A stretch of DNA of 64,000 nt from an uncultured Clostridia bacterium (GTDB lineage Bacteria; Bacillota; Clostridia; Oscillospirales; CAG-272), in NCBI GenBank assembly GCA_947627475.1, contig CANQWE010000003.1, forward strand, positions 1,005 to 65,004, in the 5' to 3' direction. A program made the position numbers and the translations under genes. The notes beneath the pieces were generated by a model. The model saw only the letters and a list, made by a program, of their open reading frames with translations, was not told the DNA's origin and ran no database searches. This document shows, in pieces, positions 4,747-59,945 of this stretch. Each line of letters begins with the position of its first letter. The first letter of the stretch is position 1.

Positions 4747-5370
4747 ATGCATGGCAGTCATTACAAAAAACCTATACATACGCGTCAGCGCCTGACCTTA
4801 CTGTTTGTTTCCCTGCTTCTTGTGATCGGAGTGGGTATCGGTGCTACGTTTGCCTATATCCGGATGCAGACCCAGGAGGAACGCAACGTGTTCACACCGG
4901 GAAGGGTGGCCTGCGCGGTGGAGGAGACCTTTGACGGCAGTGAAAAAAAGGATGTTTCCATTAAAAATACCGGCAATACAGAGGCATATATCCGCGCGGC
5001 AGTCCATGTTACATGGATGCGGGACGATGAAAATCCTGACGCTGCCGACCAGACCGTAATGGCAAGCGTACCCCAGGAGGGGATCGACTATACCATCACC
5101 TATGCAGAAAACGCCGGCTGGCTCCGGATCGGCGACTATTGGTATTACCAAAGCCCGGTGGAGCCAGGCGACAGCACGGCTGTATTGGTTACTTCCTGCC
5201 GGCTGGCAGAGGGGGGAACCGTGCCCCAGGGGTATCATCTGTCTGTTGAAATTGTTTCTTCAGCCATACAGTCCCTCCCCAATACTGTCCCGGTGGAGAA
5301 ATGGAATGTGGAGATTGCTGACGGACAGATTATCGGCGCCGCTGTGGAAAGCGAGGTGACGGGAGAATGA
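4747..5370 (+). CDS. TasA/camelysin-like secreted protein with SipW-type signal peptide
   Basis: ATG at 4747 follows RBS AAGGGGGG. N-terminus is ..LLLVIGVGIGATFAYIRMQ, with a KDVSIKNTGNTEAYIRA motif. The track ORF starts earlier at 4690, overlapping the end of the upstream gene. Confidence 0.75.
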   Translation: MHGSHYKKPIHTRQRLTLLFVSLLLVIGVGIGATFAYIRMQTQEERNVFTPGRVACAVEETFDGSEKKDVSIKNTGNTEAYIRAAVHVTWMRDDENPDAADQTVMASVPQEGIDYTITYAENAGWLRIGDYWYYQSPVEPGDSTAVLVTSCRLAEGGTVPQGYHLSVEIVSSAIQSLPNTVPVEKWNVEIADGQIIGAAVESEVTGE

Positions 5371-6937: not shown

Positions 6938-6949
6938 AAAAACGACAAC

Positions 6950-7090
6950 TGCATATAGGGGAGCTTGTAAACAGGCTGAGAGGAAGGTGCGACCTTCGAC
7001 CCATGAACCTGATTTGGATAATGCCAACGGAGGGAAGCGAAGGAAGACACTGCGGGAAGCTGCCAATTGGGGGCTTCCCGTATTTTTTTT
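6950..7090 (+). promoter_or_regulatory. TPP (THI-box) riboswitch with terminator expression platform
   Basis: GGGGAGC..CTGAGAGG..ACCC..GAACCTGATTTGGATAATGCCAACGGAGGGAAG matches the THI element core. It is followed by the hairpin CGGGAAGC/GCTTCCCG and a T8 run (7082..7090). Confidence 0.88.
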
Positions 7091-45034: not shown

Positions 45035-45051
45035 CTCACTTGTTTGGGTTA

Positions 45052-45261
45052 TTATGCATCCCCAGCTGCTCCCAAAAAGTCCTGCACTACATCCATAAGA
45101 TGAAGGGAGGATAGGGAAGTGCGGTTGCACAGGATGACCAGTTTTTCCATTGCGCTTCTATCACAGGTCACGTCTTCAATAGTTATCTGCTCATTTGCGA
45201 TTCCATAGCCGGTATAAACAGTGTTCTCGCAGCAGTACGATCCTTCAGTCAAGTGATACAT
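45052..45261 (-). CDS. Small conserved hypothetical protein (69 aa)
   Basis: First ORF downstream of the riboswitch terminator. The ..YGIANEQITIEDVTCDRSAMEKLVILCNRTSLSSLHLMDVVQDFL pattern resembles a small Clostridia-specific family. The assignment is uncertain. Confidence 0.5.
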   Translation of the reverse strand: MYHLTEGSYCCENTVYTGYGIANEQITIEDVTCDRSAMEKLVILCNRTSLSSLHLMDVVQDFLGAAGDA

Positions 45262-45285: not shown

Positions 45286-45325
45286 CTAAAAAAATAAATG
45301 ACCTGCAGGCGAAAGCTTGCAGGTC
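45286..45325 (-). terminator. Intrinsic terminator acting as riboswitch expression platform
   Basis: Minus strand reads GACCTGCAAG-CTTTCG-CCTGCAGGTC followed by ATTTATTTTTTT, 25 nt upstream of the 45261 start codon. Confidence 0.75.
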
Positions 45326-45339
45326 AACAGTACCCATCG

Positions 45340-45465
45340 CAAAAAACAATATAGCACTACAATACATGCAGTGCATCCATTGCTGCAACTGGCTGTCATG
45401 TCAGAGACGAAGACCCTATAGCTTTGCGTCGCCGATTTTCATCGGGTTTGCCAAATATTATTTTT
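45340..45465 (-). promoter_or_regulatory. c-di-GMP-I (GEMM-I) riboswitch
   Basis: Minus strand reads GGCAAACCCGAUGAAAAUCGGCGACGCAAAGCUAUAGGG. This matches the GEMM-I core (GGCAAAC, a GAAA tetraloop hairpin and ACGCAAAGC), for example Vc2 GGCAAACCAUUCGAAAGAGUGGGACGCAAAGCC. The 3' boundary is approximate. Confidence 0.85.
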
Positions 45466-45468
45466 ATC

Positions 45469-45497
45469 AATGTACCATATTTGGTATAATTTGTCAA
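45469..45497 (-). promoter_or_regulatory. Promoter of the riboswitch-controlled unit
   Basis: Minus strand has TTGACA (45497..45492), a 17-nt spacer ending in TGG, then TACATT (45474..45469). This places the TSS about 10 nt before GGCAAAC. Confidence 0.5.
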
Positions 45498-45740
45498 TAG
45501 ATAATCTGTATTTTGTTAAAAAATATAATTTAACGCTGCAGATAGTCGGAGGAGAGATATATGAAATTAACTACCACTCAGTCGGCTTCGCCGCCAGCCC
45601 CCGAACAAGGGAGCCTGATATAGGGGTAGCCGCCGGCTCCCGACGAAGAGGGACTTGATATCTATCATGCGTTTTGCCGAATACGCTTACTGAAGTGTGC
45701 CGTAAGTGAAGCGCTGGGGGTGTCGGGGAAGAAAACGAAC

Positions 45741-45782
45741 GAGGAAAAAGAATAGCCCCGCTGAAAACTTTCAACGGGGCTA
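45741..45782 (-). terminator. Minus-strand intrinsic terminator just outside the left inverted repeat
   Basis: Minus strand reads TAGCCCCG-TTGAAAGTTTTCAG-CGGGGCTA followed by TTCTTTTTCC. Confidence 0.6.
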
Positions 45783-45807
45783 AATGTGTAAGATCCGACT
45801 GACAAAA

Positions 45808-45833
45808 TCCCATCGCAGAGTTGACTCATCTAA
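45808..45833. repeat. Left inverted repeat (IR-L), 26 bp
   Basis: TCCCATCGCAGAGTTGACTCATCTAA. Its exact reverse complement is at 47323..47348. Confidence 0.95.
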
Positions 45834-45871
45834 GAGACGATTTTGCACAGCATTTTGCTTATATTTACCGT

Positions 45872-45900
45872 ATTATAACACGATTTAGAAAAAATTGCAA
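45872..45900 (-). promoter_or_regulatory. Outward (leftward) sigma-A-type promoter inside the segment
   Basis: Minus strand has TTGCAA (45900..45895), a 17-nt spacer ending in TGT, then TATAAT (45877..45872), 39 nt from IR-L. Confidence 0.55.
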
Positions 45901-45998
45901 GGAAATTCGTATAAAAATTTTTAAAAAAGTGTGTTTTCTTGTACGTTGAACCGTCTGTACAACCGTCAAATTTATGCTTAATGAAAGGAGACTACGCA

Positions 45999-47102
45999 AT
46001 GTCAAAACGAGGAGAGAATATTTACAAGCGCAAGGACGGCCGGTGGGAGGGCCGGTATGTGAAAAGTCGGGACTCCAGTGGCCGGCCGCGTCTAGGCTAT
46101 GTTTACGGAAAAACTTATCGGGAGACAAAGGAAAAATTATGGAAAGAAAAGATGCAGCCATCCAGCTGCTCCAGCAGCCGCAATCTGTTTTCCCGATACT
46201 GCGACGAATGGCTGCTTCTACGCAGAAATTGCGTGAAACCGTCCACATATATAAAATATCATGGAATGATAAACAGGCAAATTAAGCCCACCCTGGGAAA
46301 GGTGTCCCTACAGCATATGAGCACCGTTTTGGCAGAGGAGTTCAGCCACTCTCTGCTAACAGAGAAAGGGCTTTCTCCGAAAACAGTAAAAGATATCCTT
46401 GTGGTTTTACGCGCCGTTTTACAGCACGCCAAGCGGCAGACGGGAGAGCATTTTCAGATGGAGGTAGTATATCCTAAGGAAAGCAAAAAAGAGATGCGGG
46501 TCATGTCCCTGGAAGAGCAGAAAAGACTTACGGCTTTTTTGCTGCGCGATCCAAGTCCGGATCAATTTGGAATTATGTTGGCTCTCCTTACGGGGATGCG
46601 CATCGGAGAGGTGTGTGCCCTGCGTTGGCGGGATATCTGTTTGGATACCGGAGAAATCCGTGTCCGGGCGACGATGCAGCGGCTGCAAAAATTAGAGCCT
46701 GTGGACGGAAAAAGGACGGAGATCGTGGTAGGAGAGGCAAAAAGCTATGCTTCCTGCCGAACAATTCCGCTGACGGGTACTGCTTTGCAGCTCTGTGGGA
46801 AAATGCGGATGGGCGATCCGAATGCTTTCGTTTTGACCGCCAGGGCAGATCGCTTTATGGAACCCAGAGCCTTGCAATACCGCTTAAAAAAATATACAAA
46901 GGCCTGCGGAATATCCGACATTCACTTCCATACTTTACGGCATACCTTTGCAACCCGCTGTGTTGAAGTGGATTTTGAAGTTAAATCTCTGTCAGAAATA
47001 CTGGGCCATGCAAGCGCCAAGGTCACATTGGACCGGTATGTCCATTCTTCTATAGAATTGAAAAGAAAAAATATGAAAAAATTAGCGGCAGCAGGGTTAT
47101 AA
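45999..47102 (+). CDS. Tyrosine site-specific recombinase (phage-integrase family)
   Basis: N-terminal IYKRKDGRWEGRY arm-type DNA-binding module. Catalytic GMRIGEVCALRWRD (R), HTLRHTFATR (HxxR) and GHASAKVTLDRYVH (H..Y). RBS AAAGGAGA. Confidence 0.9.
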   Translation: MSKRGENIYKRKDGRWEGRYVKSRDSSGRPRLGYVYGKTYRETKEKLWKEKMQPSSCSSSRNLFSRYCDEWLLLRRNCVKPSTYIKYHGMINRQIKPTLGKVSLQHMSTVLAEEFSHSLLTEKGLSPKTVKDILVVLRAVLQHAKRQTGEHFQMEVVYPKESKKEMRVMSLEEQKRLTAFLLRDPSPDQFGIMLALLTGMRIGEVCALRWRDICLDTGEIRVRATMQRLQKLEPVDGKRTEIVVGEAKSYASCRTIPLTGTALQLCGKMRMGDPNAFVLTARADRFMEPRALQYRLKKYTKACGISDIHFHTLRHTFATRCVEVDFEVKSLSEILGHASAKVTLDRYVHSSIELKRKNMKKLAAAGL

Positions 47103-47163
47103 AGACTATTTTTGTGCCGTCAAAATAGGCCGTCAAATTTCTGGAAAAAAAGGAGATTCATGC

Positions 47164-47192
47164 TTGAAAAATAATTTGATGCATGTTATAAT
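47164..47192 (+). promoter_or_regulatory. Outward (rightward) sigma-A-type promoter inside the segment
   Basis: TTGAAA (47164..47169), a 17-nt spacer ending in TGT, then TATAAT (47187..47192), 131 nt from IR-R. It points into the fibre operon. Confidence 0.6.
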
Positions 47193-47322
47193 AATAAAGA
47201 ATATAGGCAGAAGACAATAGATCGTCTCTTGCAGTGCTTTTCCAGAAGCGTTTTGCAGTGCGAGAGCAGAGGGGAATTGTTTGGCTCCTGCTTTTCGGCA
47301 GTAACGTGCGGTTGATCCTGTG

Positions 47323-47348
47323 TTAGATGAGTCAACTCTGCGATGGGA
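47323..47348. repeat. Right inverted repeat (IR-R), 26 bp
   Basis: TTAGATGAGTCAACTCTGCGATGGGA is the exact reverse complement of 45808..45833. Confidence 0.95.
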
Positions 47349-47446
47349 CTGCGGAAAATTCAGTATATTTGCTTTTGAATCGTCATGCTACAATCAGTAT
47401 TCCCATTTTAACAAGTTTTATGAAATCCACAAGGGGGCATATATAG

Positions 47447-48286
47447 ATGGAAACGCAGCAGAAAAAGAATCCGATAAAAGCTGCCATTGTCTTGCTGGCA
47501 GTTTTGCTTGGACTCAGTATTATTGCGCTGGTCGGCCTGCTGTTTTATACGCATTTTGCAGACGGTAAGCCTGCTTCTGCAGCCGTACCCGGCAATGTAA
47601 TCGCCACGTCGGCACAGGCCGGCCGGGGCTCCTTGACACAGCTTGCCGCTGTGCCGCTGGCAGCAGATAATATTGCGGCGCAGCGCGCCGCGGCAACCAA
47701 TGCTGCAGCGCAGTCGGGCACGCAGATATCTGAAGAGGCGAAAGCAAAAGCGCAAATGCTGGAACTGTATAAGGGCCATGGGGCGGATACCGTTCCCTTT
47801 GCAGTGGATAACCTGTTCCCGGGAGATACTATTACCCAGTATTATGGCGTGAAAATTTCCCACAAAGAGGATGTGGACCTGCTCTTTCGTCCCGACGTAA
47901 CAGAAGAGACAAAGGCGCTTGGCGGCGTGCTGCATATAAAAGTTGCCAATATGGAAACGGGTGAAGTACTGTTCGACGGTAAATTTGCAGAGGCAGATGG
48001 GAAAGAAGTTTCCCAAACGATTGCAGCAAACGATGCAGAAGAAAGCATTTCCTACTTTGAGGTTACTGTATCCCTGGACCAGTCCGTAGGCAACGAATAC
48101 CAGGCAGCCAGACTGCTGGCAGATTTTCATTGGTATGCTGCCCAGGAAGAGGGTTTGATCCGCCCGCCCCAGACGGGGGACATCTTTATGATCCTGCTGG
48201 GGACCGTTATCGCAGTATCGGCAGCTTTGCTGACATTGCTTGTAGTGTATAAACGCAGAAAGGAGGGCGGGAACCGTGTCCGGTAA
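47447..48286 (+). CDS. PQTG-motif cell-wall-anchored protein with TasA-like core motif
   Basis: N-terminal signal/TM segment and an FPGDTITQYYGVKISHKEDVDLLF motif. C-terminal RPPQTG + hydrophobic segment + KRRKEGG. Paralogous in layout to 5367..6035. Confidence 0.75.
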   Translation: METQQKKNPIKAAIVLLAVLLGLSIIALVGLLFYTHFADGKPASAAVPGNVIATSAQAGRGSLTQLAAVPLAADNIAAQRAAATNAAAQSGTQISEEAKAKAQMLELYKGHGADTVPFAVDNLFPGDTITQYYGVKISHKEDVDLLFRPDVTEETKALGGVLHIKVANMETGEVLFDGKFAEADGKEVSQTIAANDAEESISYFEVTVSLDQSVGNEYQAARLLADFHWYAAQEEGLIRPPQTGDIFMILLGTVIAVSAALLTLLVVYKRRKEGGNRVR

Positions 48287-48824
48287 AAGATCCTCGAAAA
48301 AACAGCTGACCAGAGGGATTGCGGCGATTGCGGTTCTTGCTGTTTGCCTTTGTGTCACAACCCTTGCCCTGGTTTATTCTATGGTGTCCGTAGAGGGCAA
48401 CCTGTTCCAGACCGGAACCATTGCAATCAACTTAAACGATGGGAAACCGGTGATCGAAGAAAATGAATTTTTGTTTGAACCGGGGATGACGGTAGAGAAG
48501 ACCTTCTTTATAGAAAATACCGGAACATGGGATGTGTATTACAAACTTTATCTGGAAAATCTAGAGGGTGGCCTTGCAGATGTGCTGGAGGTATCTGTGC
48601 GTGACAAGGATACCACACTCTTTAGCGGACAGGCGTCCGATTTCACCAAAGAGAAAGCAGACGCGGCGACAGAGCTTCTTGCGTTGGGCGAGCATCGGGA
48701 ACTTACCATGACGTTCCATTTTCCACAGGACGCGTCCAACAATACGGAAAATCTGTCTCTATCCTTTGATTTGCGGGCCGACGCAGTACAGGCAAAGAAC
48801 AATCCCGATAAATTGTTTGAGTAA
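48276..48824 (+). CDS. TasA/camelysin-like secreted protein (short form)
   Basis: GTG start after AAGGAGGG. The signal peptide ends ..LALVYSMVSVEGN. EPGMTVEKTFFIENTGTWDVYYKLY motif. Confidence 0.75.
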   Translation: MSGKRSSKKQLTRGIAAIAVLAVCLCVTTLALVYSMVSVEGNLFQTGTIAINLNDGKPVIEENEFLFEPGMTVEKTFFIENTGTWDVYYKLYLENLEGGLADVLEVSVRDKDTTLFSGQASDFTKEKADAATELLALGEHRELTMTFHFPQDASNNTENLSLSFDLRADAVQAKNNPDKLFE

Positions 48825-48862
48825 TTTTTGAAGATTTGTTTTTTTACAGATCTTGCTTATTT

Positions 48863-49059
48863 GGAGGTTTCTTATGAAACATGCACAAATGGAAAAAAAT
48901 TCCAGCGGGGGGGGGCTTTCAAACCCTGCAGTTAGGTAAATTGTCTGATTCCCCGGAAAAGGGTACAGAATAAATAGATGCGCTCCGGTTTTGGCGGCAT
49001 TTTCGGGGGCATCTTGTCCTGGAAAAGCCGACAAAATACATAAGGAGCGTGTCAGAAAA
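48863..49059 (+). repeat. Conserved leader module, copy A
   Basis: AGGAGGTTTC, ATG mini-ORF, G9, TTAGG..CCT hairpin, AGATGC..CTCCGG/CGGGGG..GCATCT hairpin, GCCGACAAAATA and the RBS. It aligns with copies B, D and E. Confidence 0.8.
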
Positions 49060-50613
49060 ATGACAACAAAGAAAAACACGAAACGCGCACTGCTCACCAG
49101 CGTGATGGCTACCGTGCTGTGTGCGGCAATGTTAATCGGCACCACCTTTGCATGGTTTACCGACAGCGTAGCCAGCGGGAAAAACAAGATCGTCGCTGGG
49201 AATCTGGATATTGATCTGGAATACAGCACCGATGGCGCAAACTGGAACGAGGTTGATGCCGACACCAATCTGTTCAAGCCTACCGAGGGCGTGGCCCTTT
49301 GGGAGCCCGGTCACACGGAATATGTCTATCTTCGGGTAAGCAACGCCGGCTCCCTGGCATTGAAATATCAGTTGGCCGTCAATGTATTTGGCGATGAGAA
49401 CGGCGGCGCGGAAAAAGAGTATACCAACAAAGAAGGCGGCAAGTTTCAACTCTCCGACTATCTGGTGTTTAGCCAGACGGATGGAGCAGCATCTGTAACC
49501 AAGCGGGAAGATTTGTGGATAAAAGACGCTGCTGCTGAAAAAGCAGCTATGGGCAAGCTGGACGGAGTCGGTATGACAGATATTCTGCTCTCCGGCGAAA
49601 ATAACGTCCTGACGCTGGCGGTATATATGCCGACACAGGTAGGAAACGAAGCAAATCAGCTCACCTTTGCAAAAGAAACGGAAGGCGAGCCTACCGTTTA
49701 TCTTGGCCTGACACTAAACGCTACCCAGACGCCGGAAGAGGAAGACAGCTTTGGCAAGACGTATGACGAGGGCGCATGGAGCGATTTTGAAAAGCAGCAG
49801 CATTTGGAGGATTTGTTAGAGGAAGGCTATGTTCCGGTTGAATCCAACAGCGCATTTACGGAAGCAACAAAAACAGAAGAGAAAATCGTAGTAACGAATG
49901 ACCTTGTTGTGGATCAAAACACACCAAGCATACAGGGAAGCACCACTATTGACTTTAACTATGGGCAGGTAACCCGCGTAACGGCCAGTGGCAACGGCTT
50001 GCTTGTTCAAAATTACGCTGCGGATATCACCCTGCAAAATGCCAATTTTGTCAGTGTAAAAGGCGGTGTGGTTGTCCGGGTTGAGGGCGCCAATCATTTA
50101 ACCGTGAAAAACAGCAATTTTATATGCGAAGCTGACGGGTCTACCGGAAATAAGATTTTTCAGTTGACGCCTTCAGAAGCAGATAAAAAAATGACTGTGA
50201 CTTTTGAAAACTGTGTTTTCGACACAGGATATGTTGCCTTTGAGGGATATAACAATATTACGGAATATGACGTTCGCTTTATAAACTGTAAATTCTTATG
50301 GGATGATAAAAATGGCAGCAGCTTTGTACAGGCCGGCAGCTATGCAAAGGGAAGTTACAGCTTTGAAGGGTGTACCTTTGCGTATACAAATTGGTGGAGC
50401 GGTCCGCTGGTACGGGTGAATAATCCAAACGCCCAAAGCAGCGTTACACTTCAGGATATAACGGTGAACGGTTCCGGCAGCAAAAAGCCGTATGTGGTAA
50501 GCGGATTCTCTGTTGTCGGCAAAAGAAATCTGACGGTAACTTCCACGGGAACAAATCAGTATTCTTACAATGACAGCATACTGGACTGGGAAACCGTTGC
50601 GGCAGAGAAGTAA
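49060..50613 (+). CDS. TasA-like N-terminal domain fused to right-handed beta-helix (PbH1-type) C-terminal domain
   Basis: MTTKKNTKRALLTSVMATVLCAAMLIGTTFAWFTDSV is a SipW-type signal. The C-terminal half has periodic ..NANF.., KNSNF, ENCVF, INCKF and EGCTF repeats typical of parallel beta-helix. Confidence 0.8.
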   Translation: MTTKKNTKRALLTSVMATVLCAAMLIGTTFAWFTDSVASGKNKIVAGNLDIDLEYSTDGANWNEVDADTNLFKPTEGVALWEPGHTEYVYLRVSNAGSLALKYQLAVNVFGDENGGAEKEYTNKEGGKFQLSDYLVFSQTDGAASVTKREDLWIKDAAAEKAAMGKLDGVGMTDILLSGENNVLTLAVYMPTQVGNEANQLTFAKETEGEPTVYLGLTLNATQTPEEEDSFGKTYDEGAWSDFEKQQHLEDLLEEGYVPVESNSAFTEATKTEEKIVVTNDLVVDQNTPSIQGSTTIDFNYGQVTRVTASGNGLLVQNYAADITLQNANFVSVKGGVVVRVEGANHLTVKNSNFICEADGSTGNKIFQLTPSEADKKMTVTFENCVFDTGYVAFEGYNNITEYDVRFINCKFLWDDKNGSSFVQAGSYAKGSYSFEGCTFAYTNWWSGPLVRVNNPNAQSSVTLQDITVNGSGSKKPYVVSGFSVVGKRNLTVTSTGTNQYSYNDSILDWETVAAEK

Positions 50614-50723
50614 TACATCCTTGTCCTCTCCCTCCGGTGAGGGAGAGGCAATCTAAGGGCATAAGCTATGGTTTGTGCCTTTGGATTGCCTGCGTGGAAC
50701 AACATATACGAAGGAGACTTTCC

Positions 50724-51503
50724 ATGAAAAAAGCACTCCATATTGCAAAAAACGTACTGACATGGCTTATTGTAGTCCTGGCGGTATGTATGATGATTTT
50801 TACCATTGTATCCAGTATGACCTTTAATCGCGTAGACCGGGACCTCTTCGGATATAAGGCGTTTATCGTTCTGTCCGACTCTATGAGCGCAACGGATTTT
50901 GACGCAGGAGATTTGGTGCTGGTAAAGGAAGTAGATCCGGAAACCCTAAAGGCTGGCGACATCATCGCGTATCAGTCCACCAATACGGAAAACTACGGCG
51001 AGGTGGTCACCCATAAGATCCGGGAGCTGACCACCGATGCCCAGGGTAATCCCGGGTTCGTTACATACGGCACGACGACGGATCAGAACGACGAGAACGT
51101 AGTCACCTACGACTTTGTACTCGGGAAGTATCAAAAGAACCTGCCGGGGGTGGGAGCGTTCTTTCAGTTTTTAAAAACCACACCCGGATATATCGTCTGT
51201 ATTTTTCTCCCGTTCCTGGCGCTGATCCTCATACAGGGGATCAACAGCATCCGACTGTTCCGCCGGTATAAAAAGGAACAGCTGGAGGAAATCGAGGCCC
51301 AGCGGGAACAGCAGAAGCTGGAGCTGGAAGAAGAGCGGGAACGCCTTGCCCGGCAGCAGGCTGAGTCTCAGAAAATGATGGCGGAGCTGATGAAATTGAA
51401 AAACGAACTGTCTGGGGAGGCGACCCCGGCAGAACCGGAAAAACCACTTCAGGAAGAATCGGCGGCAGAAAAGGACTTGGAAAAAGATACAGGCGGCCAA
51501 TAG
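50724..51503 (+). CDS. sipW: Signal peptidase I, SipW (archaeal/ER) type, with extended charged C-terminal tail
   Basis: N-terminal TM segment, IVLSDSMSATDFDAGDLVLV (Ser box), VVTHKI (His box) and a C-terminal TM. A coiled-coil-like tail of about 85 aa follows (KKEQLEEIEAQREQQKLELEEERERLARQQ..). Confidence 0.85.
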   Translation: MKKALHIAKNVLTWLIVVLAVCMMIFTIVSSMTFNRVDRDLFGYKAFIVLSDSMSATDFDAGDLVLVKEVDPETLKAGDIIAYQSTNTENYGEVVTHKIRELTTDAQGNPGFVTYGTTTDQNDENVVTYDFVLGKYQKNLPGVGAFFQFLKTTPGYIVCIFLPFLALILIQGINSIRLFRRYKKEQLEEIEAQREQQKLELEEERERLARQQAESQKMMAELMKLKNELSGEATPAEPEKPLQEESAAEKDLEKDTGGQ

Positions 51504-51597
51504 GCCGATGGTATTGTAAAAGAAGGGTCCATAGAGAGCGGCTGGTGGATGCCTTTATGAAACGGCGTGTTTACTGTAAAATAAAAAAATATTTCCT

Positions 51598-51879
51598 GTA
51601 CATCCCCTTTGTGGGGGTGCGGGGATCCAAGGGCATAGATTTGTTGTGCCCCTGGATCCCCGAAGTCGGGAATCCACAGGAGGTTTCATTATTATGAAAC
51701 ATGTACAAATGGTAAAATATTCCATCGGGGGGGGGTGCCGATCCCCACAATTAGGCGATTTGCCTAAGCTTCTGGGGAAAGGGTTTATAGCAAAATAGAC
51801 GCGCTCCGATTTTGGCGGCATTTATCGGAGACGTCTTGTCCCGGGAAAGGCCGACAAAATATTAAAGGAGTAGAGAGAA
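51598..51879 (+). repeat. Conserved leader module, copy B
   Basis: Hairpin 1 CATCCCC..GGGGGTG, hairpin 2 GGGGATCCAAGGGCA..TGCCCCTGGATCCCC, AGGAGGTTTC, mini-ORF, G9 and the AGACG..CTCCGAT/ATCGGAG..CGTCT hairpin. Confidence 0.85.
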
Positions 51880-53282
51880 ATGACAACAAAGAAAAGCACA
51901 AAGAGCGCACTGCTGTCCAGTGTGCTGGCTACAGTTCTGTGCGTGGCCATGCTCGTTGGAACAACCTTTGCATGGTTTACAGACAGCGTAACAAGCGGGA
52001 AAATAAAATCGTCGCAGGTAATCTGGACGTAGAGCTGGTTGACGCACAGGGAAATTCCCTGGAAGGGGAAGTGCTGGGCTGGAAAGCATTTGACAATCGG
52101 GAGCAGGAGCAGATCCTGTGGGAGCCTGGCTGTACCTATAATACAGAGGAATTTTACATTAAAAATGACGGCAGCCTAAATCTAAAATTTAAGTTTGCAG
52201 TTTCCGGTATCCAAGGAGACGCGAAGTTGCTGGAGGTTATTGACTTCACCGCTATGGCTGATACAAGCTGGTTCAAGTTTAATACCGGTGCCGTTTCTAT
52301 ATCCCCTGAAAGCAGCGAATTTGACCTTTTGAAGGGTTGTGATATTGATACGCTGTTTTACGGTAAGATGCACTTTGACGAATATACTCTTGCGCCTGGG
52401 CAGACAGTTGGTCCGATCACCCTGACCGGTCATATGCAGGAAGAAGCGGGGAACGAGTATCAGGGCCTGTCTATCGATGGCATCGCCATTACGCTGATTG
52501 CCACACAGGCAACGGGTGAGGAAGACAGCTTCAATGGTACATATGACAAGGATGCCAAATTTCCTATAGCCGGAACGGAAGAAGAATTGCAGACACTGTT
52601 GAAAGCGGCGCAGCCTGGTGATACAGTAACGATCGATTCAGAATTTACAGGAAATGTTGTTGTTCCGGAGGGGCTGCAGGACGTAACGATTGCCTCCATG
52701 AACGCGCAGGTAAATAAAATCGAGATAAAAGCCGACGGAATCGACAATGTTACTTTTGACGGATTTGAATTTGACCAGGTAACGGGAAATGCAATCGAGC
52801 TGGCAGGGGAAGCTGCAATCGGTACAGTTACGTTTAAGGATTGCCATATAACTGGTACAGGTGTGAAAAGCGGAAGAGGCTTTTCCGGTGCGAACCAAAA
52901 TACAGAGTTGGTTTTTGAAAATTGCTTCTTTACCGATATTGGATATCCAATCTATGATGCGTTTGGCGGATATAAGAGTTTGACGGTTCGCGGATGTACT
53001 TTTAGCAACAGTGCCGCTGCAGGTTCAAAGTCCTGGGCCATGATGGTGCAGGGTGCATTGGATACTGTGGTAATTGATGGTTGTACCTTTAACGGATGCA
53101 CCGATGGTATTTTAAAAATGACTGGGGGCTGTGCTACATCCTTTACATTCACAAATAACACTATGATCAATTGCAGCGCCCATGATCCATATGGTTTGTT
53201 CCAAATGAAATTTGGTGAAACTTGTGTAAAAAATGCTTCCAATAACACATTTGACGGGGAAGACTTTCCCTTTGATTTTTAA
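51880..53282 (+). pseudogene. TasA-like/beta-helix paralog with a 1-nt frameshift just after the signal peptide
   Basis: The ATG at 51880 gives MTTKKSTKSALLSSVLATVLCVAMLVGTTFAWFTDSVTSGKIKSSQVIWT*. The mature part (NKIVAGNLDVELVD.. to 53282) is intact in the +1 frame. Compared with paralogs, GGGAAAAACAAGATC has become GGGAAAATAAAATC. Confidence 0.75.
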
Positions 53283-53524
53283 AATAAATTTTGTGGTCTC
53301 TCCCGCAGGGGAGAAGAGATAATCTAAGGGTAAGACAAATGTGTTCATTGCCGGAAGACAGGTATATCCTGTAACCCCCTAAAAATTTAAACAGGCTCCT
53401 CACCGAAACGGTGAGGGGCGATCCAAGGGCATAACGATAGGTCGGATGTGCCTTTGGATCGCCGTATTGGCAGCAACATCCTGCAGTTGTTGCAGGAATG
53501 AGATAAATTGAGGAGAAATTTGCG
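53283..53524 (+). repeat. Divergent leader, copy C (hairpin pairs only)
   Basis: A degenerate pair (TCTCTCCCGCAGGGGAGA; ATAATCTAAGGGTAAG..) is followed by an intact pair (CCTCACCGAAACGGTGAGG; CGATCCAAGGGCA..TGCCTTTGGATCG). It lacks the G-tract module. Confidence 0.6.
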
Positions 53525-55111
53525 ATGTCACAAAGAAAACATACAAAGAAAGCCCTGATCACCGCAGCTGTATCGATCGGTCTGTGCATAGCGATGCTTT
53601 TTGGAACAACATTGGCGTGGTTTTCTGACAATAGTGCCGGCAGCAGAAATAAATTCGTGGCAGGCAATTTGGATGTGGCGCTTTATAATACCACTGGGGA
53701 TACGGAAGCATTGGTCCATCCCGATGCCCCTTTATTCGGCACAGCTGCCCGGTGGGAGCCCGGTCAGGTAAAATATGTGAACCTGCGCGTGGACAATACG
53801 GGAACGCTGGCGCTGAAATATCAGTTAGGCATTCGCATTGCCGAGGAAAAAGGCAGTATAAATGTGTTTGGCGAGAAATTTTTTCTCTCTGACTTTATGC
53901 ATTATGCAGTTGTTCCTGGCAAACAAATGTATACCGACGACGAAGCAGGAAGGCAAACGGCCATTGCTGCGGCAGAGCAAGCGGGAGCAGCGCCTATATC
54001 TCAAAGCCCCTTGTCCCAGGACGGATTCCTGTGCGCAAAGGGACAGGATACCGATACGGCTTCCAGTAAAAATGAGATGACATTGATCGTTTATATGGTG
54101 CAGGATAATGAAAACCGGGCCAACGTAAGAAAGGGAGAGGAAGAGCCCGTTCTTGACTTGGGTGTGACACTGTCTGCGACCCAAGCCCCCAGCGAACAGG
54201 ACAGCTTTGATGATGGCTATGACCAAGACGCAGGCATTGTCGCAGTTACGCCGGAAACGGCACAGGCAGCGCTGGACGCGGCGGATTTTGGGGAAACACT
54301 GTACCTTGCACCTGGAAACTACGGAACTTTGTATCTGGATCAGGCAAAGGAAACCAGCCTTGTAAGGGACAGACAGTACTCCCGTACCTTGGAAAATGTG
54401 TCTATTGTGGGCCAGGCCGGCGTTATAATAGACGGAATTCAGTTCAAAACCGGCCATATTTACGGAGAAGGTACAAACCCGGTGAATGGACAGCCGTTGA
54501 ATGGGACTGCAAATTCCTATTACAGCACGCTGCATATCAAGAATCTTACCATAGAAAAAGTAGCGCTGACAAAGTCTATTTATATTGGTGCAGATACCTC
54601 TTCCTTCCTGAACCTGGATGGGCTTACCGTACGGGATTGTTCCTATACCGGTACAGACCGTACGCACAATGATAAGACCAATAAACTGCTGCATATAGCA
54701 GGCGGCGAAAACTATATGAGAAATATTCTTGTGGAAAACTGCACTGTACATACTGCTTTCCAGGGGATATATACTTACGGAAACCGAGATATCGTTGTGC
54801 GCGGATGCACCTTTGATAATTTGGGTCACAACGCTGTTGCCATTCAGGATGCCTCTCCGGATCAGGGAGCTACGATTTATAATGGCGGGACAATTCTGAT
54901 TGAAGGCAATAAGATTTCTCAGGTATCCGACCGGGTTTTCCGGGTTGGAAATTTTCGGGAAGGATCTATCCGATTTGTGAATAACAGTATTACTGCGTCC
55001 GGTGATGCAAGTGACTCTGCAAACCCGATTTATAAAGCAACGTCTGTGGCTGCCGGCGCTGAGGTTTCCTTCACAGGAAATACAGTGGACGGAGCAGAAT
55101 GGGCTGGCTGA
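53525..55111 (+). CDS. TasA-like N-terminal domain fused to beta-helix C-terminal domain (divergent paralog)
   Basis: MSQRKHTKKALITAAVSIGLCIAMLFGTTLAWFSDNS. C-terminal repeats VRDCSY, VENCTV and VRGCTF. Confidence 0.8.
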   Translation: MSQRKHTKKALITAAVSIGLCIAMLFGTTLAWFSDNSAGSRNKFVAGNLDVALYNTTGDTEALVHPDAPLFGTAARWEPGQVKYVNLRVDNTGTLALKYQLGIRIAEEKGSINVFGEKFFLSDFMHYAVVPGKQMYTDDEAGRQTAIAAAEQAGAAPISQSPLSQDGFLCAKGQDTDTASSKNEMTLIVYMVQDNENRANVRKGEEEPVLDLGVTLSATQAPSEQDSFDDGYDQDAGIVAVTPETAQAALDAADFGETLYLAPGNYGTLYLDQAKETSLVRDRQYSRTLENVSIVGQAGVIIDGIQFKTGHIYGEGTNPVNGQPLNGTANSYYSTLHIKNLTIEKVALTKSIYIGADTSSFLNLDGLTVRDCSYTGTDRTHNDKTNKLLHIAGGENYMRNILVENCTVHTAFQGIYTYGNRDIVVRGCTFDNLGHNAVAIQDASPDQGATIYNGGTILIEGNKISQVSDRVFRVGNFREGSIRFVNNSITASGDASDSANPIYKATSVAAGAEVSFTGNTVDGAEWAG

Positions 55112-55407
55112 TCGATCTTTTTCCGCCTCTCTCCGGAGGGGCGGGGATCCAAGGGCATAACAAAGACAGGGTTTGTGCCCTTGGATCCCTGAAGCCGGGA
55201 TAACATAGGAGGTTTCTTATGAAATTTGCACAAATGGTAAAAATTTCCAACGGGGGGGGGCTGTCCATTCCCAATGTTAGGCACTTTGCCTGATTTTTTG
55301 GGAAAGAACGTCATAGCAAAATAGATGCGCTTTGGTTGTATCGGCATTTTCCAAAGGCATCTGATCCGGAAAACGTCGACGATATTACTAAAGGAGCGTG
55401 TCAGAAA
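55112..55407 (+). repeat. Conserved leader module, copy D
   Basis: Hairpin 1, perfect hairpin 2 GGGATCCAAGGGC/GCCCTTGGATCCC (55144..55189), mini-ORF, G9 (55252..55260) and the hairpin AGATGC..CTTTGG/CCAAAG..GCATCT. Confidence 0.85.
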
Positions 55408-57252
55408 ATGACAACAAAGAAAAGTACGAAACGCGCACTGCTGTCCAGTGTTCTGGCTACCGTGCTGTGCGCAGCAATGCTGATCGGTACGACCTTTGCA
55501 TGGTTTACCGACAGCGTGACATCCGGCAAAAACAAGATAGTTGCTGGGAATCTGGATATAGAGCTGTACCAGGTCGAGGGTAGCACGGAAACCCCTGTGA
55601 CAGCAGATACCAATCTGTTCCGGGAGGATGCGCTGTGGGAGCCTGGACATGTAGAGGTAGTCACTTTGAAGATGGCCAACCTGGGCACACTGGCATTGGA
55701 ATATGCGCTGGATATATCCATTGCAAATGAAACAGCCGGCACAAATGCAGCCGGAGATCCTTTCCGGCTTTCTGATTATATTCAGTTCGCTGCTGTTGAC
55801 GGGAACAATACATATGCAACCCGAGAACAGGCGATTGCGGCCGCAGAGGCAGCCGGCTCCACACCTATTTCCCAGTTGGCAGCGGGGAAAAGCGGCGTAC
55901 TGTATCCTGCAGACAAAGCCACTGCTGAAAATCCTGCATTGGAATATGTTACGCTGATCGTTTATATGCCCGAGACTGTCGGAAACGAAGCCAACTACAA
56001 AACCGGCACGACTGCGCCCACCATTGATATGGGTATTTCCCTGCTGGCTACACAGACGCCCTATGAGGCAGACAGCTTTGATCAGAAGTATGACGATAAA
56101 GCCGGCGAACTGAATTTCACAGAGCCTGGGGACTATACGGTTGACCTGGACGAGACACCCGCATACGGCAACGGCGATTATGGCGTAATCCAGGCGCAAA
56201 AGGATGTAACAGTCAATATTACCGGCAGCGGTGCGGTCAAGGCGCAGGAAAGTTCGGACAAATATGCAATGGCCGTGGCCGCGTATGAGGGAGGCACTGT
56301 CAATATCTATGGCGGTACCTATACACAGGAAATTACCGGTTCAGATGAACAGTATGACATGATTTATGCTGCGTACGGCGGAAATATCAATATTTACGGC
56401 GGTACCTTTAAGAGCGTCACACCCAAGTGGACATTGAACGTCCGGGACGCGGATTACCAGAGCGGCGCGTCAAAAATTACTGTGTACGGAGGGACCTTCT
56501 ATAAATATAACCCGGCCCAGAGCGATACAGAACCCGGCGGCCCAGTGAGCTATGTTGCAGACGGCTACACTGTTATACAAAACGGGGATTGGTATACTGT
56601 AGTAAAAGCAGCAGTTGACAGCGCAGAGGCGCTAAAAGACGCAATTGCAAGTGCAAATGACGGGGATACCATCGTTCTGACGAAGGACATAGAGCTGACT
56701 ACATCCGCGCGTACCATCGATAAAAACATTACCTTCGACGCCCAGGGGAATACAATTTCCGGTGTACCCATGTATATTGGCAGTACAAACAATGTCACCG
56801 TGAAGAATGCCGTGTTTGACAACGCGAAGGGAACGAAGGAATCCTGTGTTTATGTAAATAATACCAGCGGCATAAATGTTTTTGAAAACTGCGTGTTTGA
56901 AAATACCAATTGGGATGTCATTCAAATGACCGGCAACATTGAAGGGGCACAGCTGGTTGTCAACAACTGTACTTTTGCCAATGCTGCACAGCGGTATATC
57001 CATGTGGAAGCTTTGGAAAACGGCAGTCCGGATTATAATACAAATGTAAAAGTTACCATTACCAATAACACATTTGGGCAAAATCCTACCGGCAATGATG
57101 CAATTGGTCTGTATTACATAGCTGACGCAGGTATTACTGCATATAACAATACATTTGCATCAGAAGAACCTACAATATATATCTGCAGCGCATCCATTTC
57201 TCCGTCCATTTCTCAGGAGGACGCCATCGCGATGTTTACTGCAAAAAAGTAA
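55408..57252 (+). CDS. TasA-like N-terminal domain fused to beta-helix C-terminal domain
   Basis: MTTKKSTKRALLSSVLATVLCAAMLIGTTFAWFTDSV. C-terminal repeats ENCVF and NNCTF, plus IYGGT repeats. Confidence 0.8.
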   Translation: MTTKKSTKRALLSSVLATVLCAAMLIGTTFAWFTDSVTSGKNKIVAGNLDIELYQVEGSTETPVTADTNLFREDALWEPGHVEVVTLKMANLGTLALEYALDISIANETAGTNAAGDPFRLSDYIQFAAVDGNNTYATREQAIAAAEAAGSTPISQLAAGKSGVLYPADKATAENPALEYVTLIVYMPETVGNEANYKTGTTAPTIDMGISLLATQTPYEADSFDQKYDDKAGELNFTEPGDYTVDLDETPAYGNGDYGVIQAQKDVTVNITGSGAVKAQESSDKYAMAVAAYEGGTVNIYGGTYTQEITGSDEQYDMIYAAYGGNINIYGGTFKSVTPKWTLNVRDADYQSGASKITVYGGTFYKYNPAQSDTEPGGPVSYVADGYTVIQNGDWYTVVKAAVDSAEALKDAIASANDGDTIVLTKDIELTTSARTIDKNITFDAQGNTISGVPMYIGSTNNVTVKNAVFDNAKGTKESCVYVNNTSGINVFENCVFENTNWDVIQMTGNIEGAQLVVNNCTFANAAQRYIHVEALENGSPDYNTNVKVTITNNTFGQNPTGNDAIGLYYIADAGITAYNNTFASEEPTIYICSASISPSISQEDAIAMFTAKK

Positions 57253-57555
57253 GCGGCTTGAAAATCTGACCCGCATCCCCCTATAGGGGATGCAGGGATC
57301 CAAGGGCATAGATTTGTTGTGCCTTTGGATCCCCGAAGGCGGGAAAACACAGGAGGTTTCATTGTTATGAAACATGTACAAATGGTAAAAATTTCCAACG
57401 GGGGGGGGGCTGTCAATCCCCACAGTTAGGCAAATTGCCTGATCTACCGGGGAAATGTTACAAAGTACAATAGATGCACTCCGATTTTGACGGCATTTTT
57501 CGGAGGCGTCTTGTCCCGGAAAAAGCCGACAAAATACCATAAAAGGAGTGTCAAA
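57253..57555 (+). repeat. Conserved leader module, copy E
   Basis: Hairpin 1 GCATCCCC-CTATA-GGGGATGC, hairpin 2 (57295..57333), mini-ORF, G10 (57400..57409) and the hairpin AGATGC..CTCCGA/TCGGAG..GCGTCT. Confidence 0.85.
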
Positions 57556-59022
57556 ATGACGACAAGGAAAAGTACGAAACGCGCACTGCTGTCCAGTGTT
57601 CTGGCTACCGTGCTGTGCGCAGCAATGCTGATCGGTACGACCTTTGCATGGTTTACCGACAGTGTAATCAGTGGGAAAAATCGGATTGTCGCGGGAAACC
57701 TGGACGTAGATCTTATAATGGATAAGCTGGACGGAGAAGGGTACGTAAGTATCGCCGACGGAGAGGGAGACATTTTTCAGGAAGCGGACGTTGCGCAGAA
57801 TAGCAACGCCACCCTTTGGGAGCCCGGCAAAACGCAAATTGTGTATCTTGGCGTGCAAAATAAGGGAAGCCTTGCACTGAAATACAATATTTTGCTGCAG
57901 GTGACGGATGGCGGTCTAATTGGTTCTTTGGAATACGCTGTAATTGATGGAATCAAGGCTGCAGATTTAACAGCGGCAAACTGGACAGAGTTGAAAGCGG
58001 CTGCATCCAGCACCGGTGATATTGCTGCCGGTAGCATGATCGCTGCACCAAACGGCTGCCTGGATGAGATTGTAAACGGACAGGCAAATGAAACCGATTA
58101 TTTTGCCTTGGCGGTACATATGAAGGAAGAAGCCGGCAATCAGTACCAGGCCAAAGACATTACTATTGATCTGACGGTAGTCGCAACCCAGGCTACAGCA
58201 GAGAGTGACAGCTTTGACAATCAATATGACAAGGAAGCGCCGTTGGATTTTGTTCCGGTTGCAAACGCAGATGAACTGCAAAATGCCATCGATGCGGGAA
58301 AGGCCGTTTCACTCACAGCGCCTGTGGAATTGGAAGGCGCTTTGCAGGCAACCGGCGATGTTACGATTAACGGAAACGGAAATGCGCTTACCATCCCCAG
58401 TGGTACCGACCGTGTGATCAATATTACCGGGACAGAGAATCCTGTTACCATTGCTTTGTCCAATGTAGATATTCAGGGCCCCACTACCGGGTCATACACA
58501 AGAGGTATTTCTATCTATGACGCGAAAAAAGTGAAGCTGGTTATGGACAATTGTTCTCTCTCTGCCAACTACTACGCCCTCAATGTGGCAAGCGCAAGCG
58601 ATGAGGCAGAGGTTGTAATTCGTAATTCCACATTATCCGGATGGTGTGCCTTCCAGACACATTCTCCCAACGCAAATGTGACATTTGAAAACTGCACATT
58701 GGTTGGATTGAACGATAAGGGATATAATGCAGAGGGCTGGAATGATTTTGCAACGGTTGTAATAAACGAATTTAGTGAAGGCAATCCCGATCCAGAGGGA
58801 GCCCACGATGGCACCTTTACATTTAAAAATTGCCGGATTGAAGCCAATCAGACTACAGGGAACAAACAATATTTTCTGTCTGTCAGAGCAAAAAATACCA
58901 CATTAATTGCTGAAAACTGTACTTTTTATGTTGATGGAGAAAGAATCAGTCAGGACAAAGTGCCCGACTATGTTGCGGTTTATCCGGAAGTAATGGAGAG
59001 TTTTCAGTTTACATTACGGTAA
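57556..59022 (+). CDS. TasA-like N-terminal domain fused to beta-helix C-terminal domain
   Basis: MTTRKSTKRALLSSVLATVLCAAMLIGTTFAWFTDSV. C-terminal repeats MDNCSL, RNSTL, ENCTL, KNCRI and ENCTF. Confidence 0.8.
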   Translation: MTTRKSTKRALLSSVLATVLCAAMLIGTTFAWFTDSVISGKNRIVAGNLDVDLIMDKLDGEGYVSIADGEGDIFQEADVAQNSNATLWEPGKTQIVYLGVQNKGSLALKYNILLQVTDGGLIGSLEYAVIDGIKAADLTAANWTELKAAASSTGDIAAGSMIAAPNGCLDEIVNGQANETDYFALAVHMKEEAGNQYQAKDITIDLTVVATQATAESDSFDNQYDKEAPLDFVPVANADELQNAIDAGKAVSLTAPVELEGALQATGDVTINGNGNALTIPSGTDRVINITGTENPVTIALSNVDIQGPTTGSYTRGISIYDAKKVKLVMDNCSLSANYYALNVASASDEAEVVIRNSTLSGWCAFQTHSPNANVTFENCTLVGLNDKGYNAEGWNDFATVVINEFSEGNPDPEGAHDGTFTFKNCRIEANQTTGNKQYFLSVRAKNTTLIAENCTFYVDGERISQDKVPDYVAVYPEVMESFQFTLR

Positions 59023-59201
59023 TGGATGGAAGACATAGGATTTTTAATATATAGAAGTCTGCAAGTTACACCATCCATAGGAGTTAAAATCTACGACAAA
59101 TATTCCCAAGCCTCTATAGAGGCTTGGGAGGCAATCAAAGGGTATAATATCCATTGTGTCCTTTGATTGCCTTGACGCTGGCGGAAAGGGGAGCAAATAC
59201 A

Positions 59202-59945
59202 TTGAGAAACTTATTGAAATTCCGAACCAAAGAGAAACCTACTGATGATAATATCATGCGGCTGATCCTGCCCACTGTTTGGGGGATCGTTCTCTGCATG
59301 GCTTGTTTGTGCGGCACCACCTGGGCGTGGTTTTCCGGAGTAATGGCATCCGGTACAGCTACCGTGCAGGCGGCGAACTATGCGGTCAGTGCAAAGGTGA
59401 CCGACGCATCCGGTACAGAGGTGTCTGCGCAGAGAAACGATACATTTACACTGGCCGCGGAAAAAAGCTATACAGTGGAACTTACTGTAGTGGGAACAGT
59501 CGAGAAAACTGCCGGCTACTGCAGGGTCACCTATCAGGATAAGCAGTATTATACTGGTGCCATGGAAAAAGGCGATACAATACAGTTTTCTGTGTCTGCC
59601 GGAGCAGAAGGAGGCACACTGTCTGTTTTGGGCCTTTGGGGAACTTACAGCGGAGAGGTCACGCTGTCGGCGGGGAATACCATTATGGGCAGAACCGGAA
59701 CGAATCAGGTTCCTTCCAATAGCGAACCTGCCATGTCTGCAGATACATCAGCAGATACCCCGCAAGCCGAGGTGACAACGGCTGACACGGAAAAAGACGA
59801 GACGGGCACAGAGGAGACGTCAGCGCCTGTAGATGAAACCACCCAGGCACCGGAAGATACAACCGGTACTTCTCAAGAAACTACCGGAGCAGAGGAAGAC
59901 ACCACCCAGACAGAACCCTTAGGCGAGACAACATCCATACAATAA
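59202..59945 (+). CDS. Small SipW-type-signal protein with acidic Thr/Glu-rich tail
   Basis: ..ILPTVWGIVLCMACLCGTTWAWFSGVMAS junction. The C-terminal 70 aa are low-complexity T/E/D-rich. The start is uncertain: TTG 59202 after GGGGAG, or ATG 59256. Confidence 0.6.
   Translation: MRNLLKFRTKEKPTDDNIMRLILPTVWGIVLCMACLCGTTWAWFSGVMASGTATVQAANYAVSAKVTDASGTEVSAQRNDTFTLAAEKSYTVELTVVGTVEKTAGYCRVTYQDKQYYTGAMEKGDTIQFSVSAGAEGGTLSVLGLWGTYSGEVTLSAGNTIMGRTGTNQVPSNSEPAMSADTSADTPQAEVTTADTEKDETGTEETSAPVDETTQAPEDTTGTSQETTGAEEDTTQTEPLGETTSIQ

Follow-up and report, generated by a model that had tools for sequence, protein, structure and literature searches.

A naturally inverting 1.5-kb segment with an internal lambda/Tn1549-type recombinase beside a putative TasA-like fibre operon in an uncultured Clostridia bacterium

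The genome of an uncultured Clostridia bacterium (Oscillospirales, CAG-272; GenBank assembly GCA_947627475.1) carries a 1541-bp segment that is bounded by perfect 26-bp inverted repeats, encodes its own tyrosine recombinase, and occurs in nature in both orientations. The segment lies at positions 45808..47348 of the window, which denotes the whole stretch of 64,000 nucleotides that was analyzed (contig CANQWE010000003.1, positions 1,005 to 65,004) and which is numbered from its first letter. It abuts an operon of the SipW/TasA type (47447..59945, + strand), its putative target. Natural inversion takes place at exactly these repeats, and the best overall explanation, in which we place considerable confidence, is a self-contained site-specific inversion switch. 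The window displays orientation A, in which the recombinase gene reads toward the fibre operon; the flipped arrangement is referred to as orientation B.

Natural inversion of the segment

The left inverted repeat (IR-L, 45808-45833) has the sequence TCCCATCGCAGAGTTGACTCATCTAA, and its exact reverse complement forms the right repeat (IR-R, 47323-47348). When up to three mismatches are allowed, the 26-bp sequence has two matches in total in the 64-kb window and none in 100 shuffles, which bears out the claim of a preliminary description, made from the sequence alone, that the repeats are beyond chance. Complementarity continues inward, reaching 34 nucleotides (nt) at 91%. The segment holds one credible gene, the tyrosine recombinase (45999-47102, + strand).

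Public contigs were sought that encode the exact recombinase, its close alleles, the first protein of the operon, or the DUF6514 protein on the left-hand side; contigs and homologous loci are given L numbers below. Orientation A is present in 16 samples. The opposite orientation, which the preliminary description had proposed to look for in metagenomes, is found whole in L114, a 36.5-kb MEGAHIT contig (ERZ27316974) in which the entire 45808-47348 segment is inverted relative to both flanks. The three BLAST pieces of this contig overlap solely inside the 26-bp repeats, placing both breakpoints within them. One flipped junction is also present in L006, a Logan contig (ERR11477226) in which the inner right end of the segment is joined via the repeat to the reverse-complemented left flank.

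Contigs from three samples break exactly at the repeat edges, as a de Bruijn graph with both orientations would give. In ERR11457836, the segment forms a separate 1541-bp contig that runs from repeat to repeat (L007), and the left-flank contig (L108) stops exactly at the inner edge of IR-L. A 1542-bp contig in ERZ28595176 (L120) likewise extends from repeat to repeat, and the right-flank contig of SRR35114171 (L013) begins exactly at IR-R. Two haplotype groups (ATATTA and GCCCC-) are distinguished by six variable positions in the recombinase gene, and each group occurs in both orientations; inversion has therefore occurred at least twice. Neither an empty site nor a second insertion site is present among ~25 contigs covering either flank. 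The natural inversion at the repeats and the lack of extra copies or empty sites uphold the earlier preference for a hin- or fim-like invertible switch over an integrated element. Exact-pattern scans of Joint Genome Institute metagenomes for the flipped left junction, and for the left flank with the repeat, gave 0 matches, a result that is uninformative on orientation as the species is absent there.

The recombinase and its candidate sites

The recombinase gene (45999..47102) has a good ribosome-binding site and encodes a protein of 367 amino acids (aa), with a predicted N-terminal three-stranded sheet and helix, a SAM-like core-binding domain, and a catalytic domain. Pfam matches comprise Phage_integrase (PF00589, 7.5e-26) and Phage_int_SAM_3. 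Residues R201, H311, R314, H337, and Y347 are invariant across a 26-sequence alignment, in agreement with the earlier view of a single-gene interval whose recombinase has an intact catalytic layout. The N-terminus, MSKRGENIYKR, is common to all homologs. In the AlphaFold model (predicted local distance difference test score, 82.6), strands at residues 8-10, 16-24, and 30-37 are accompanied by a helix at 40-52. The top Foldseek matches of the model are Tn1549 Int (6EMZ) and full-length lambda Int (1Z1B/1Z1G), the latter aligned over 364 columns; XerA and Cre also match. Tn1549 Int is also the first match of a phmmer search against the PDB. By sequence and predicted structure, the protein is a three-domain integrase of the lambda/Tn1549 type with a heterobivalent layout. 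The assignment of an N-terminal arm-binding-type domain is structural and provisional, drawing on predicted secondary structure and on the alignment with full-length lambda Int.

Three other identities were considered and rejected. A Fim-type invertase is disfavored by the internal position and 367-aa length of the recombinase and by its score of 26.7 bits, against a cutoff of 222, for the NCBIfam model NF007371, 'tyrosine-type DNA invertase'. A serine invertase of the Hin/Gin type was set aside as domain searches gave tyrosine-recombinase domains only and no serine recombinase catalytic domain. An integrating and excising heterobivalent element does not accord with core sites that are inverted in cis, with the absence of a xis-like gene from the invertible segment, or with the lack of a second copy or empty site.

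Each repeat resembles a core-type recombination site, in which a central spacer separates the outer half-site TCGCAGAGT from a weak inner one, and contains the breakpoint of the natural inversion. The inner half-sites fit the palindromic consensus poorly (~5/9), which would fit a recombinase that depends on delivery from arm-type sites. A third site resembling the core motif, at 49445 in the window, has two mismatches and was discarded as within chance.

Candidate arm-type sites occur as two direct pairs on the + strand. The left pair (45949..45972) consists of two copies of AACCGTC at 12-bp spacing, ~30-50 bp before the start codon, and the right pair (47117..47139) of two copies of GCCGTCA at 13-bp spacing, directly after the stop codon. 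The CCGTC repeats are positioned at 45951 and 45963, and at 47117 and 47130. The preliminary description had recognized direct CCGTC repeats around the recombinase open reading frame (ORF); they are present, but number four in two pairs and not three. Its suggestion that they are possible arm-type sites gains support from their conservation across related cassettes, from the co-variation of both cassette sides described below, and from the predicted three-domain fold; their role is putative.

The fibre operon and its control elements

Domain matches agree with the earlier reading of the downstream genes, from 47447, as a PQTG/TasA-like/SipW operon. The first protein ends in a PQTG (LPXTG-like) sorting-signal-like C-terminus that is barely over the cutoff of TIGR01167. 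The operon also encodes a 182-aa camelysin/TasA-like protein, a 540-aa protein with a SipW-type signal (TIGR04088, 23.4 bits; cutoff 19), a SipW signal peptidase (50637-51503; TIGR02228, 70.1 bits; cutoff 51.85), four more proteins with an M73 N-terminus, three of which also match Beta_helix, and one 263-aa ORF. PF12389 scores above cutoff in five operon proteins. This gene content is that of a SipW-dependent fibre operon of the TasA/BsaA type, with fibre formation being putative. The closest studied fibre systems are TasA of Bacillus subtilis and BsaA of Clostridium perfringens (PMC7395162). Expression of BsaA is reportedly heterogeneous and is not known to be controlled by inversion.

Two outward-facing consensus promoters lie within the segment where the preliminary description had placed them, and they rank first (P2) and second (P1) in a promoter scan of a 3-kb region. 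P1 (45872..45900, - strand; TTGCAA-17-TGTTATAAT with an extended TG; 10/12) is antisense to the recombinase and is kept in an ortholog of 81% identity (L095). P2 (47164..47192, + strand; TTGAAA-17-TGTTATAAT with an extended TG; 11/12) faces the fibre operon in orientation A. Its -10 element and extended TG are identical in the window, in an ortholog of 88% identity (L102), and in L095, in which the -35 element is one base off (TTGCAA). The 130 bp after P2 diverge among the three orthologs, and the right arm is longer here (230 bp) than in the rest of the family.

Leftward from P1, the DNA past IR-L reads TTTTG and then enters a predicted intrinsic terminator (45743..45782, - strand), which is composed of a 13-bp stem (45782-45753, 7 G-C) and a T-run. 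This terminator lies directly outside IR-L and is conserved in L102 and L095. No + strand gene has its 3' end there, and the terminator therefore makes sense only for transcripts that leave the segment, consistent with the earlier claim that leftward transcripts meet a terminator. The leader of P2, which coincides with the 3' region of the recombinase gene, contains two weak terminator-like hairpins on the + strand, each with a U-run (47231-47256 and 47262-47298; local folds of -7.7 and -11.2 kcal/mol). The first of these is found at the same place with different stems in the window, L102, and L095. Minimum free energy folds of the whole P2 leader single out no terminator. In orientation B, transcription from P1 would start near flipped coordinate 47291, leaving ~155 nt to the ATG at 47447 with no terminator-like feature.

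Between IR-R and the start of the operon lies a fixed leader (47349..47446, + strand) that is unusually conserved among the three orthologs, unlike the adjoining cassette interior; this leader might be a regulatory RNA or a protein-binding site. A fixed promoter had been suggested near 47384 (TGCTACAAT, 47386-47394), but this site lacks an acceptable -35 element, and L095 has a disrupted version of it. The P2 leader was also considered as a riboswitch and rejected: a search against Rfam (E <=10, 45300-47600) gave nothing credible in the P1 or P2 leaders, and the P2 leader is poorly conserved.

A cyclic di-GMP (c-di-GMP) type I riboswitch is located to the left of the segment (45381-45462, - strand, 60.6 bits), with its own promoter-like site at 45497-45469. 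It leads a divergent unit (41165-45261, - strand) that encodes the 69-aa DUF6514 protein and a PAS-GGDEF-EAL protein of 1287-1321 aa. The riboswitch unit of the preliminary description is thus real, but it is the leader of divergent genes with a separate promoter and lies outside the switch. The c-di-GMP genes diverge from the segment and are insulated from it by the 45743-45782 terminator; a c-di-GMP circuit beside a fibre switch may nevertheless be functionally meaningful. A thiamine pyrophosphate riboswitch elsewhere in the window (6947-7052, + strand, 58.1 bits) is unrelated to the switch.

A family of recombinase-bearing cassettes

In an alignment-based profile scan that covered a single genome for each GTDB species, 600 candidate stretches were examined; at least 554 encode a relative of the recombinase, and 80 loci were kept. 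These loci belong to Lachnospiraceae, Oscillospiraceae, other Clostridia, and many Enterococcus, and the genes are annotated merely as 'site-specific integrase'. A single-protein scan of the contigs of GTDB representatives found no close relative; the source organism is not among the representatives. A perfect inverted repeat of at least 15 bp surrounds the gene at 56 of the 80 loci, compared with a direct repeat of that length at 5. The geometry is constant in 53 of the 56, with IR-L ~170-260 bp before the start codon, IR-R ~60-130 bp after the stop codon, and a total length of 1.35-1.66 kb. Together with L095, L096, and the window, these 53 make up the detailed set of 56 cassettes. Core sites in the family consist of inverted half-sites around a 6-8-bp spacer with the consensus TTTCGCAGAGT-N6-8-ACTCTGCGAAA; in enterococcal cassettes, the core site is TTTCTTGTTTT-N-AAAACAAGAAA.

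Promoters were scored in 54 cassettes (L017 and the duplicate L039 were dropped) at a threshold of >=10/12. An outward promoter of the P1 type, antisense to the recombinase, is present at the left end of 40/54 cassettes, many with a perfect TTGACA-17-TATAAT, compared with an inward promoter at that end in 3/54. The right end has an outward promoter of the P2 type in 3/54 and an inward promoter in 0/54. By this scoring, the P1-type promoter is conserved in the family and P2 is lineage-specific. The earlier proposal that inversion exchanges which promoter faces the operon holds in that the flip occurs, but P1 and P2 are probably not equivalent: P1 alone is conserved across the family, and P2 is lineage-restricted and followed by weak hairpins.

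The arm-type repeats of the family are direct pairs of (G/C)CGTCA(A/G)A at 12-13-bp spacing that flank the ORF, always on the recombinase strand. CGTC counts on the two sides are 62 and 69 in the sense direction versus 18 and 7 in the antisense direction. Lineage variants of the motif (AGTCA, GGTCA, and CTGGT) agree between both sides of one cassette. On the right flank, the nearest gene is oriented away from the cassette at 44/52 loci, and the left flank is mixed (29 away, 20 toward). A terminator lies outside IR-L at 11/51 loci versus outside IR-R at 2/51 (L018 and L068, in which the operon is on the left), and on the outward strand a T-rich tract comes immediately after IR-L at 15/45 loci versus 2/45 at IR-R. 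These repeat, promoter, arm, and flank statistics therefore define a common design in the order terminator or neutral flank, IR, outward promoter, arm pair, recombinase, arm pair, IR, and target operon. The promoter points away from the target in most assemblies and faces it in a few (L018, L029, and others). An internal terminator after the recombinase was discarded as a general feature, being present in only 11/54.

The targets are diverse. In the closest relatives, they are SipW/TasA-like operons (L018, L022, L025, L026, L029, L095, and L096), and other cassettes adjoin helix-turn-helix and OmpR-type regulators, NusG paralogs, MucBP adhesins, or, in Enterococcus gilvus, a WxL/DUF916/DUF3324 surface cluster. 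Related integrase genes are also carried by cultured strains that offer ready experimental systems. Perfect flanking repeats of 20-25 bp are present in Ruminococcus albus 7 (L122; plasmid pRUMAL02, RUMAL_RS19675), Butyricicoccus pullicaecorum DSM 23266 (L039), and Clostridium sp. AF27-2AA (L038), and the best flanking repeat in Enterococcus gilvus CR1 (L123; plasmid pCR1A, EGCR1_RS17455) is 18 nt at 89%. Plasmid pRUMAL02 has five homologous places. An unverified virome contig labeled 'Bacteriophage sp.' (L124; MT837341.1, 1063-2502) encodes a 44% homolog between 24-bp perfect inverted repeats and represents either bacterial DNA in the virome or a phage-borne switch.

Two further loci differ in form. 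In a Clostridia metagenome-assembled genome (L034; JAFYMD010000035.1, 2510-6447), a homolog that is missing the N-terminal domain lies between divergent TasA-like genes, whose first ~42 codons are identical and contain a 54-bp inverted repeat inside these coding 5' ends. Inversion there would swap the promoter and start codon between two fibre subunits, a form of antigenic variation. The two ends of L017 (CAAEYL010000287.1, 1625 bp, k99 assembly) are identical over 99 nt in inverted orientation, and one flank borders its cassette on either side; the contig looks like an assembly-graph symptom of mixed orientation in the sample.

A paralogous cassette resides in the same genome. Its recombinase, P0095, is 56% identical and is encoded ~49 kb upstream, just to the left of the window on the same 2.47-Mb contig. 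The cassette (ENA ERZ28758767 contig_8506; L096, 5739-7224) spans 1486 bp and has 31-bp repeats (AAGTATGATTTTTCGCAGAGATCATCCCTCT). Next to it come a SipW-like gene and genes for a protein with a faint Peptidase_M73 match and for Flg_new proteins. The distal part of this operon extends into the window (1-6000), where it includes a 1068-aa Flg_new/DUF7601 protein (1521-4727). Among the contigs that carry P0095, 10/12 are under 2 kb, L101 runs from repeat to repeat, and L098 contains a flipped junction. The two cassettes have the half-site TCGCAGAG in common and differ in the spacer, a difference that should prevent recombination between them. With divergence in both spacer and arm motif, paralogous cassettes could provide several orthogonal switches that coexist in one genome.

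The broader proposal places the window locus in a large family, spread over Clostridia and Enterococcus, of autonomous promoter cassettes of 1.35-1.66 kb that can invert. Such cassettes would combine a domesticated heterobivalent integrase with four arm sites and two core-type repeats as a possible 'Int invertasome', would include orthogonal paralogs, and would act on varied surface and regulator targets. For this proposal as a whole, we judge the chances to be evenly balanced.

Proposed mechanism and alternative explanations

The inversion mechanism as proposed is very likely. The internal 367-aa recombinase would recombine the two 26-bp core-type repeats and flip the 1541-bp segment, and it would probably be delivered or bridged via its N-terminal domain on the four internal CCGTCA-type arm sites. 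The protomers of a tetramer would equal in number both the core half-sites and the arm sites, with four of each. In orientation A, P1 would fire left through IR-L into the U-tract and then the strong terminator, and the operon would receive only such transcription as passes the weak hairpins after P2 and the recombinase gene, resulting in a low or OFF state. In orientation B, P1 would lie beside IR-R and read through the terminator-free leader into the PQTG/TasA-like/SipW operon (ON), and transcription of the recombinase gene and from P2 would run into the left terminator. The outcome would be phase-variable, SipW-dependent surface fibres.

Catalysis by this recombinase, occupancy of the arm sites, activity of the promoters, and the assignment of ON to orientation B are inferred. 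The predicted promoters and terminators are arranged as an expression switch would need, and P2 complicates the logic. Attenuated expression in orientation A with full P1-driven expression in orientation B is slightly favored by these predictions, and a polarity in which B is ON is plausible.

Several points weigh against this model. The promoters and terminators are all predicted, from consensus matches or folding energies. P1 has degraded in L102, the ortholog of 88% identity. The hairpins after P2 (47231-47298) are weak and fail stricter terminator scans. P2 faces the operon in orientation A and has a -10 element that is identical in three orthologs, so the operon may be expressed both ways. 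Pfam matched no arm-binding family to residues 1-71 of the recombinase. Orientation A was seen in ~16 samples versus orientation B in 2 of ~21; given so few B samples, switching may be rare. A sample in which both orientations coexist could also contain two resident strains, with no switching inside one clone.

The points concerning P1 and P2 lead to an alternative in which the segment inverts without an ON/OFF effect: both promoters would drive the operon, with inversion swapping leader or expression level, or inversion would mainly control expression of the recombinase or of a short P2 transcript. The 11/12 match of P2 with its extended -10, the identity of this element in three orthologs, the weak hairpins downstream, and the degraded P1 of L102 are all consistent with such an arrangement. 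However, only the P1-type promoter is conserved in the family, terminators and T-tracts occur on the side that P1 faces when it points away from the operon, with a strong left-flank terminator here, and a switch that makes no difference to expression would be hard to maintain. We consider this alternative less likely, though far from negligible.

The two orientations could also be fixed strain polymorphisms that arose through rare RecA-dependent recombination between the 26-bp repeats, an explanation that would suit the scarcity of orientation B (2 of ~21 samples) and the fact that metagenome assemblies cannot tell within-clone switching from strain mixtures. A length of 26 bp is marginal for RecA-dependent recombination, however, and both haplotype groups are found in both orientations; the paralogous cassette flips too. 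Moreover, the repeats have the anatomy of recombinase core sites, and dozens of species retain both them and the recombinase in an unchanging geometry while the sequence in between diverges. The RecA explanation is accordingly very improbable.

A small mobile element, in the form of a tyrosine-recombinase transposon with terminal inverted repeats that inserted in either orientation, is given similarly little credence. Terminal inverted repeats with an internal recombinase are what such an element would have, its homologs reside on plasmids and virome contigs, and some species carry several copies per genome. Yet the window contains no second copy, and the paralog that the genome does carry shares just 56% identity and differs in its repeat spacer. 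No empty site occurs among the ~25 flank-covering contigs, and both orientations have the same nucleotide boundaries. Cassette and operon have also diverged together (in L025, the recombinase is 49% and the TasA-like protein 54% identical), and the core repeats here are inverted, whereas known tyrosine-recombinase elements leave direct ones.

That the flipped contigs are assembly artefacts is scarcely credible: inverted repeats can confuse assemblers, and L017 looks chimeric with 99-nt identical ends (k=99), but the 26-bp repeat is shorter than k (31 for Logan, 141 for the MEGAHIT contig L114) and the first bases beside it differ between orientations, and each repeat-spanning junction k-mer must therefore be present in reads.

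Comparison with known systems

The inversion switch proposed here resembles the Salmonella Hin/hix system, in which a recombinase and an outward promoter lie inside a ~1-kb segment between inverted sites and an adjacent surface-structure operon is switched. Hin is a serine invertase that needs a Fis-bound enhancer; in contrast, the present segment is 1.5 kb long, contains a second promoter, and encodes a lambda/Tn1549-type tyrosine recombinase that is accompanied by arm-type sites. In the E. coli fimS/FimB/FimE system, and with MrpI and Ipu, a tyrosine recombinase inverts a promoter to give phase-variable fimbriae or fibres. The fim element measures 314 bp and has 9-bp repeats; the genes for its recombinases lie outside it, and these proteins have ~200 aa and no N-terminal arm-binding domain and rely on IHF and Lrp. 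The present recombinase, unlike those of fim, is internal, has three predicted domains and 367 aa, and is accompanied by its own arm-type repeats.

The RecV-dependent switches of C. difficile (cwpV, flgB, cmrRST, and pdcB) are likewise invertible elements of Clostridia that govern surface or c-di-GMP-linked traits, some of them via leader termination. RecV acts in trans on several short (~150-300 bp) elements (PMC5903667), whereas here each switch has its own recombinase and the neighboring riboswitch belongs to a separate divergent unit. The closest relatives in sequence and structure are the integrases of lambda, Tn916, and Tn1549, with which the present system shares a predicted three-domain layout, arm-like direct repeats near the ends, and core sites built of inverted half-sites about a spacer. 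Integration and excision of mobile DNA (attP x attB) are what those enzymes carry out, with Xis and host factors needed for directionality; here, the core sites are inverted in cis and inversion is the only product.

Invertons of the kind found by PhaseFinder are invertible promoters beside surface-structure genes in gut commensals, as is the present element. By default, PhaseFinder reportedly considers repeats within ~750 bp. More than 75% of the elements in the DeepInverton training set are under 300 bp (PMC11602134), and inverton surveys treat recombinases as neighbors (PMC11892184). Catalogues dominated by much shorter elements, and limits on search size, would explain why the family was missed, and current inverton censuses may for the same reason undercount switches in Firmicutes. 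In the openly accessible literature that was searched, no description was found of a recombinase-bearing 1.35-1.66-kb cassette family and its arm-site anatomy, or of inversion control of SipW/TasA-like or WxL operons. The principle of the inversion switch is already known; the cassette family is apparently undescribed, as we could not find an account of it.

For phase variation of TasA-like, SipW-dependent fibres in uncultured gut Clostridia, the locus is a concrete example that can be tested. It also presents a compact and portable design, with recombinase, arm sites, promoter, and core sites in ~1.5 kb, that is found again in hundreds of species. Should the proposed role of the arm sites hold, the cassettes would represent a heterobivalent integrase re-purposed from mobility to regulation and would offer naturally orthogonal recombinase/site pairs for synthetic biology. 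In terms of known systems, the switch works like Hin, its chemistry is that of the fim and C. difficile tyrosine recombinases, and its descent is of the lambda/Tn916 type.

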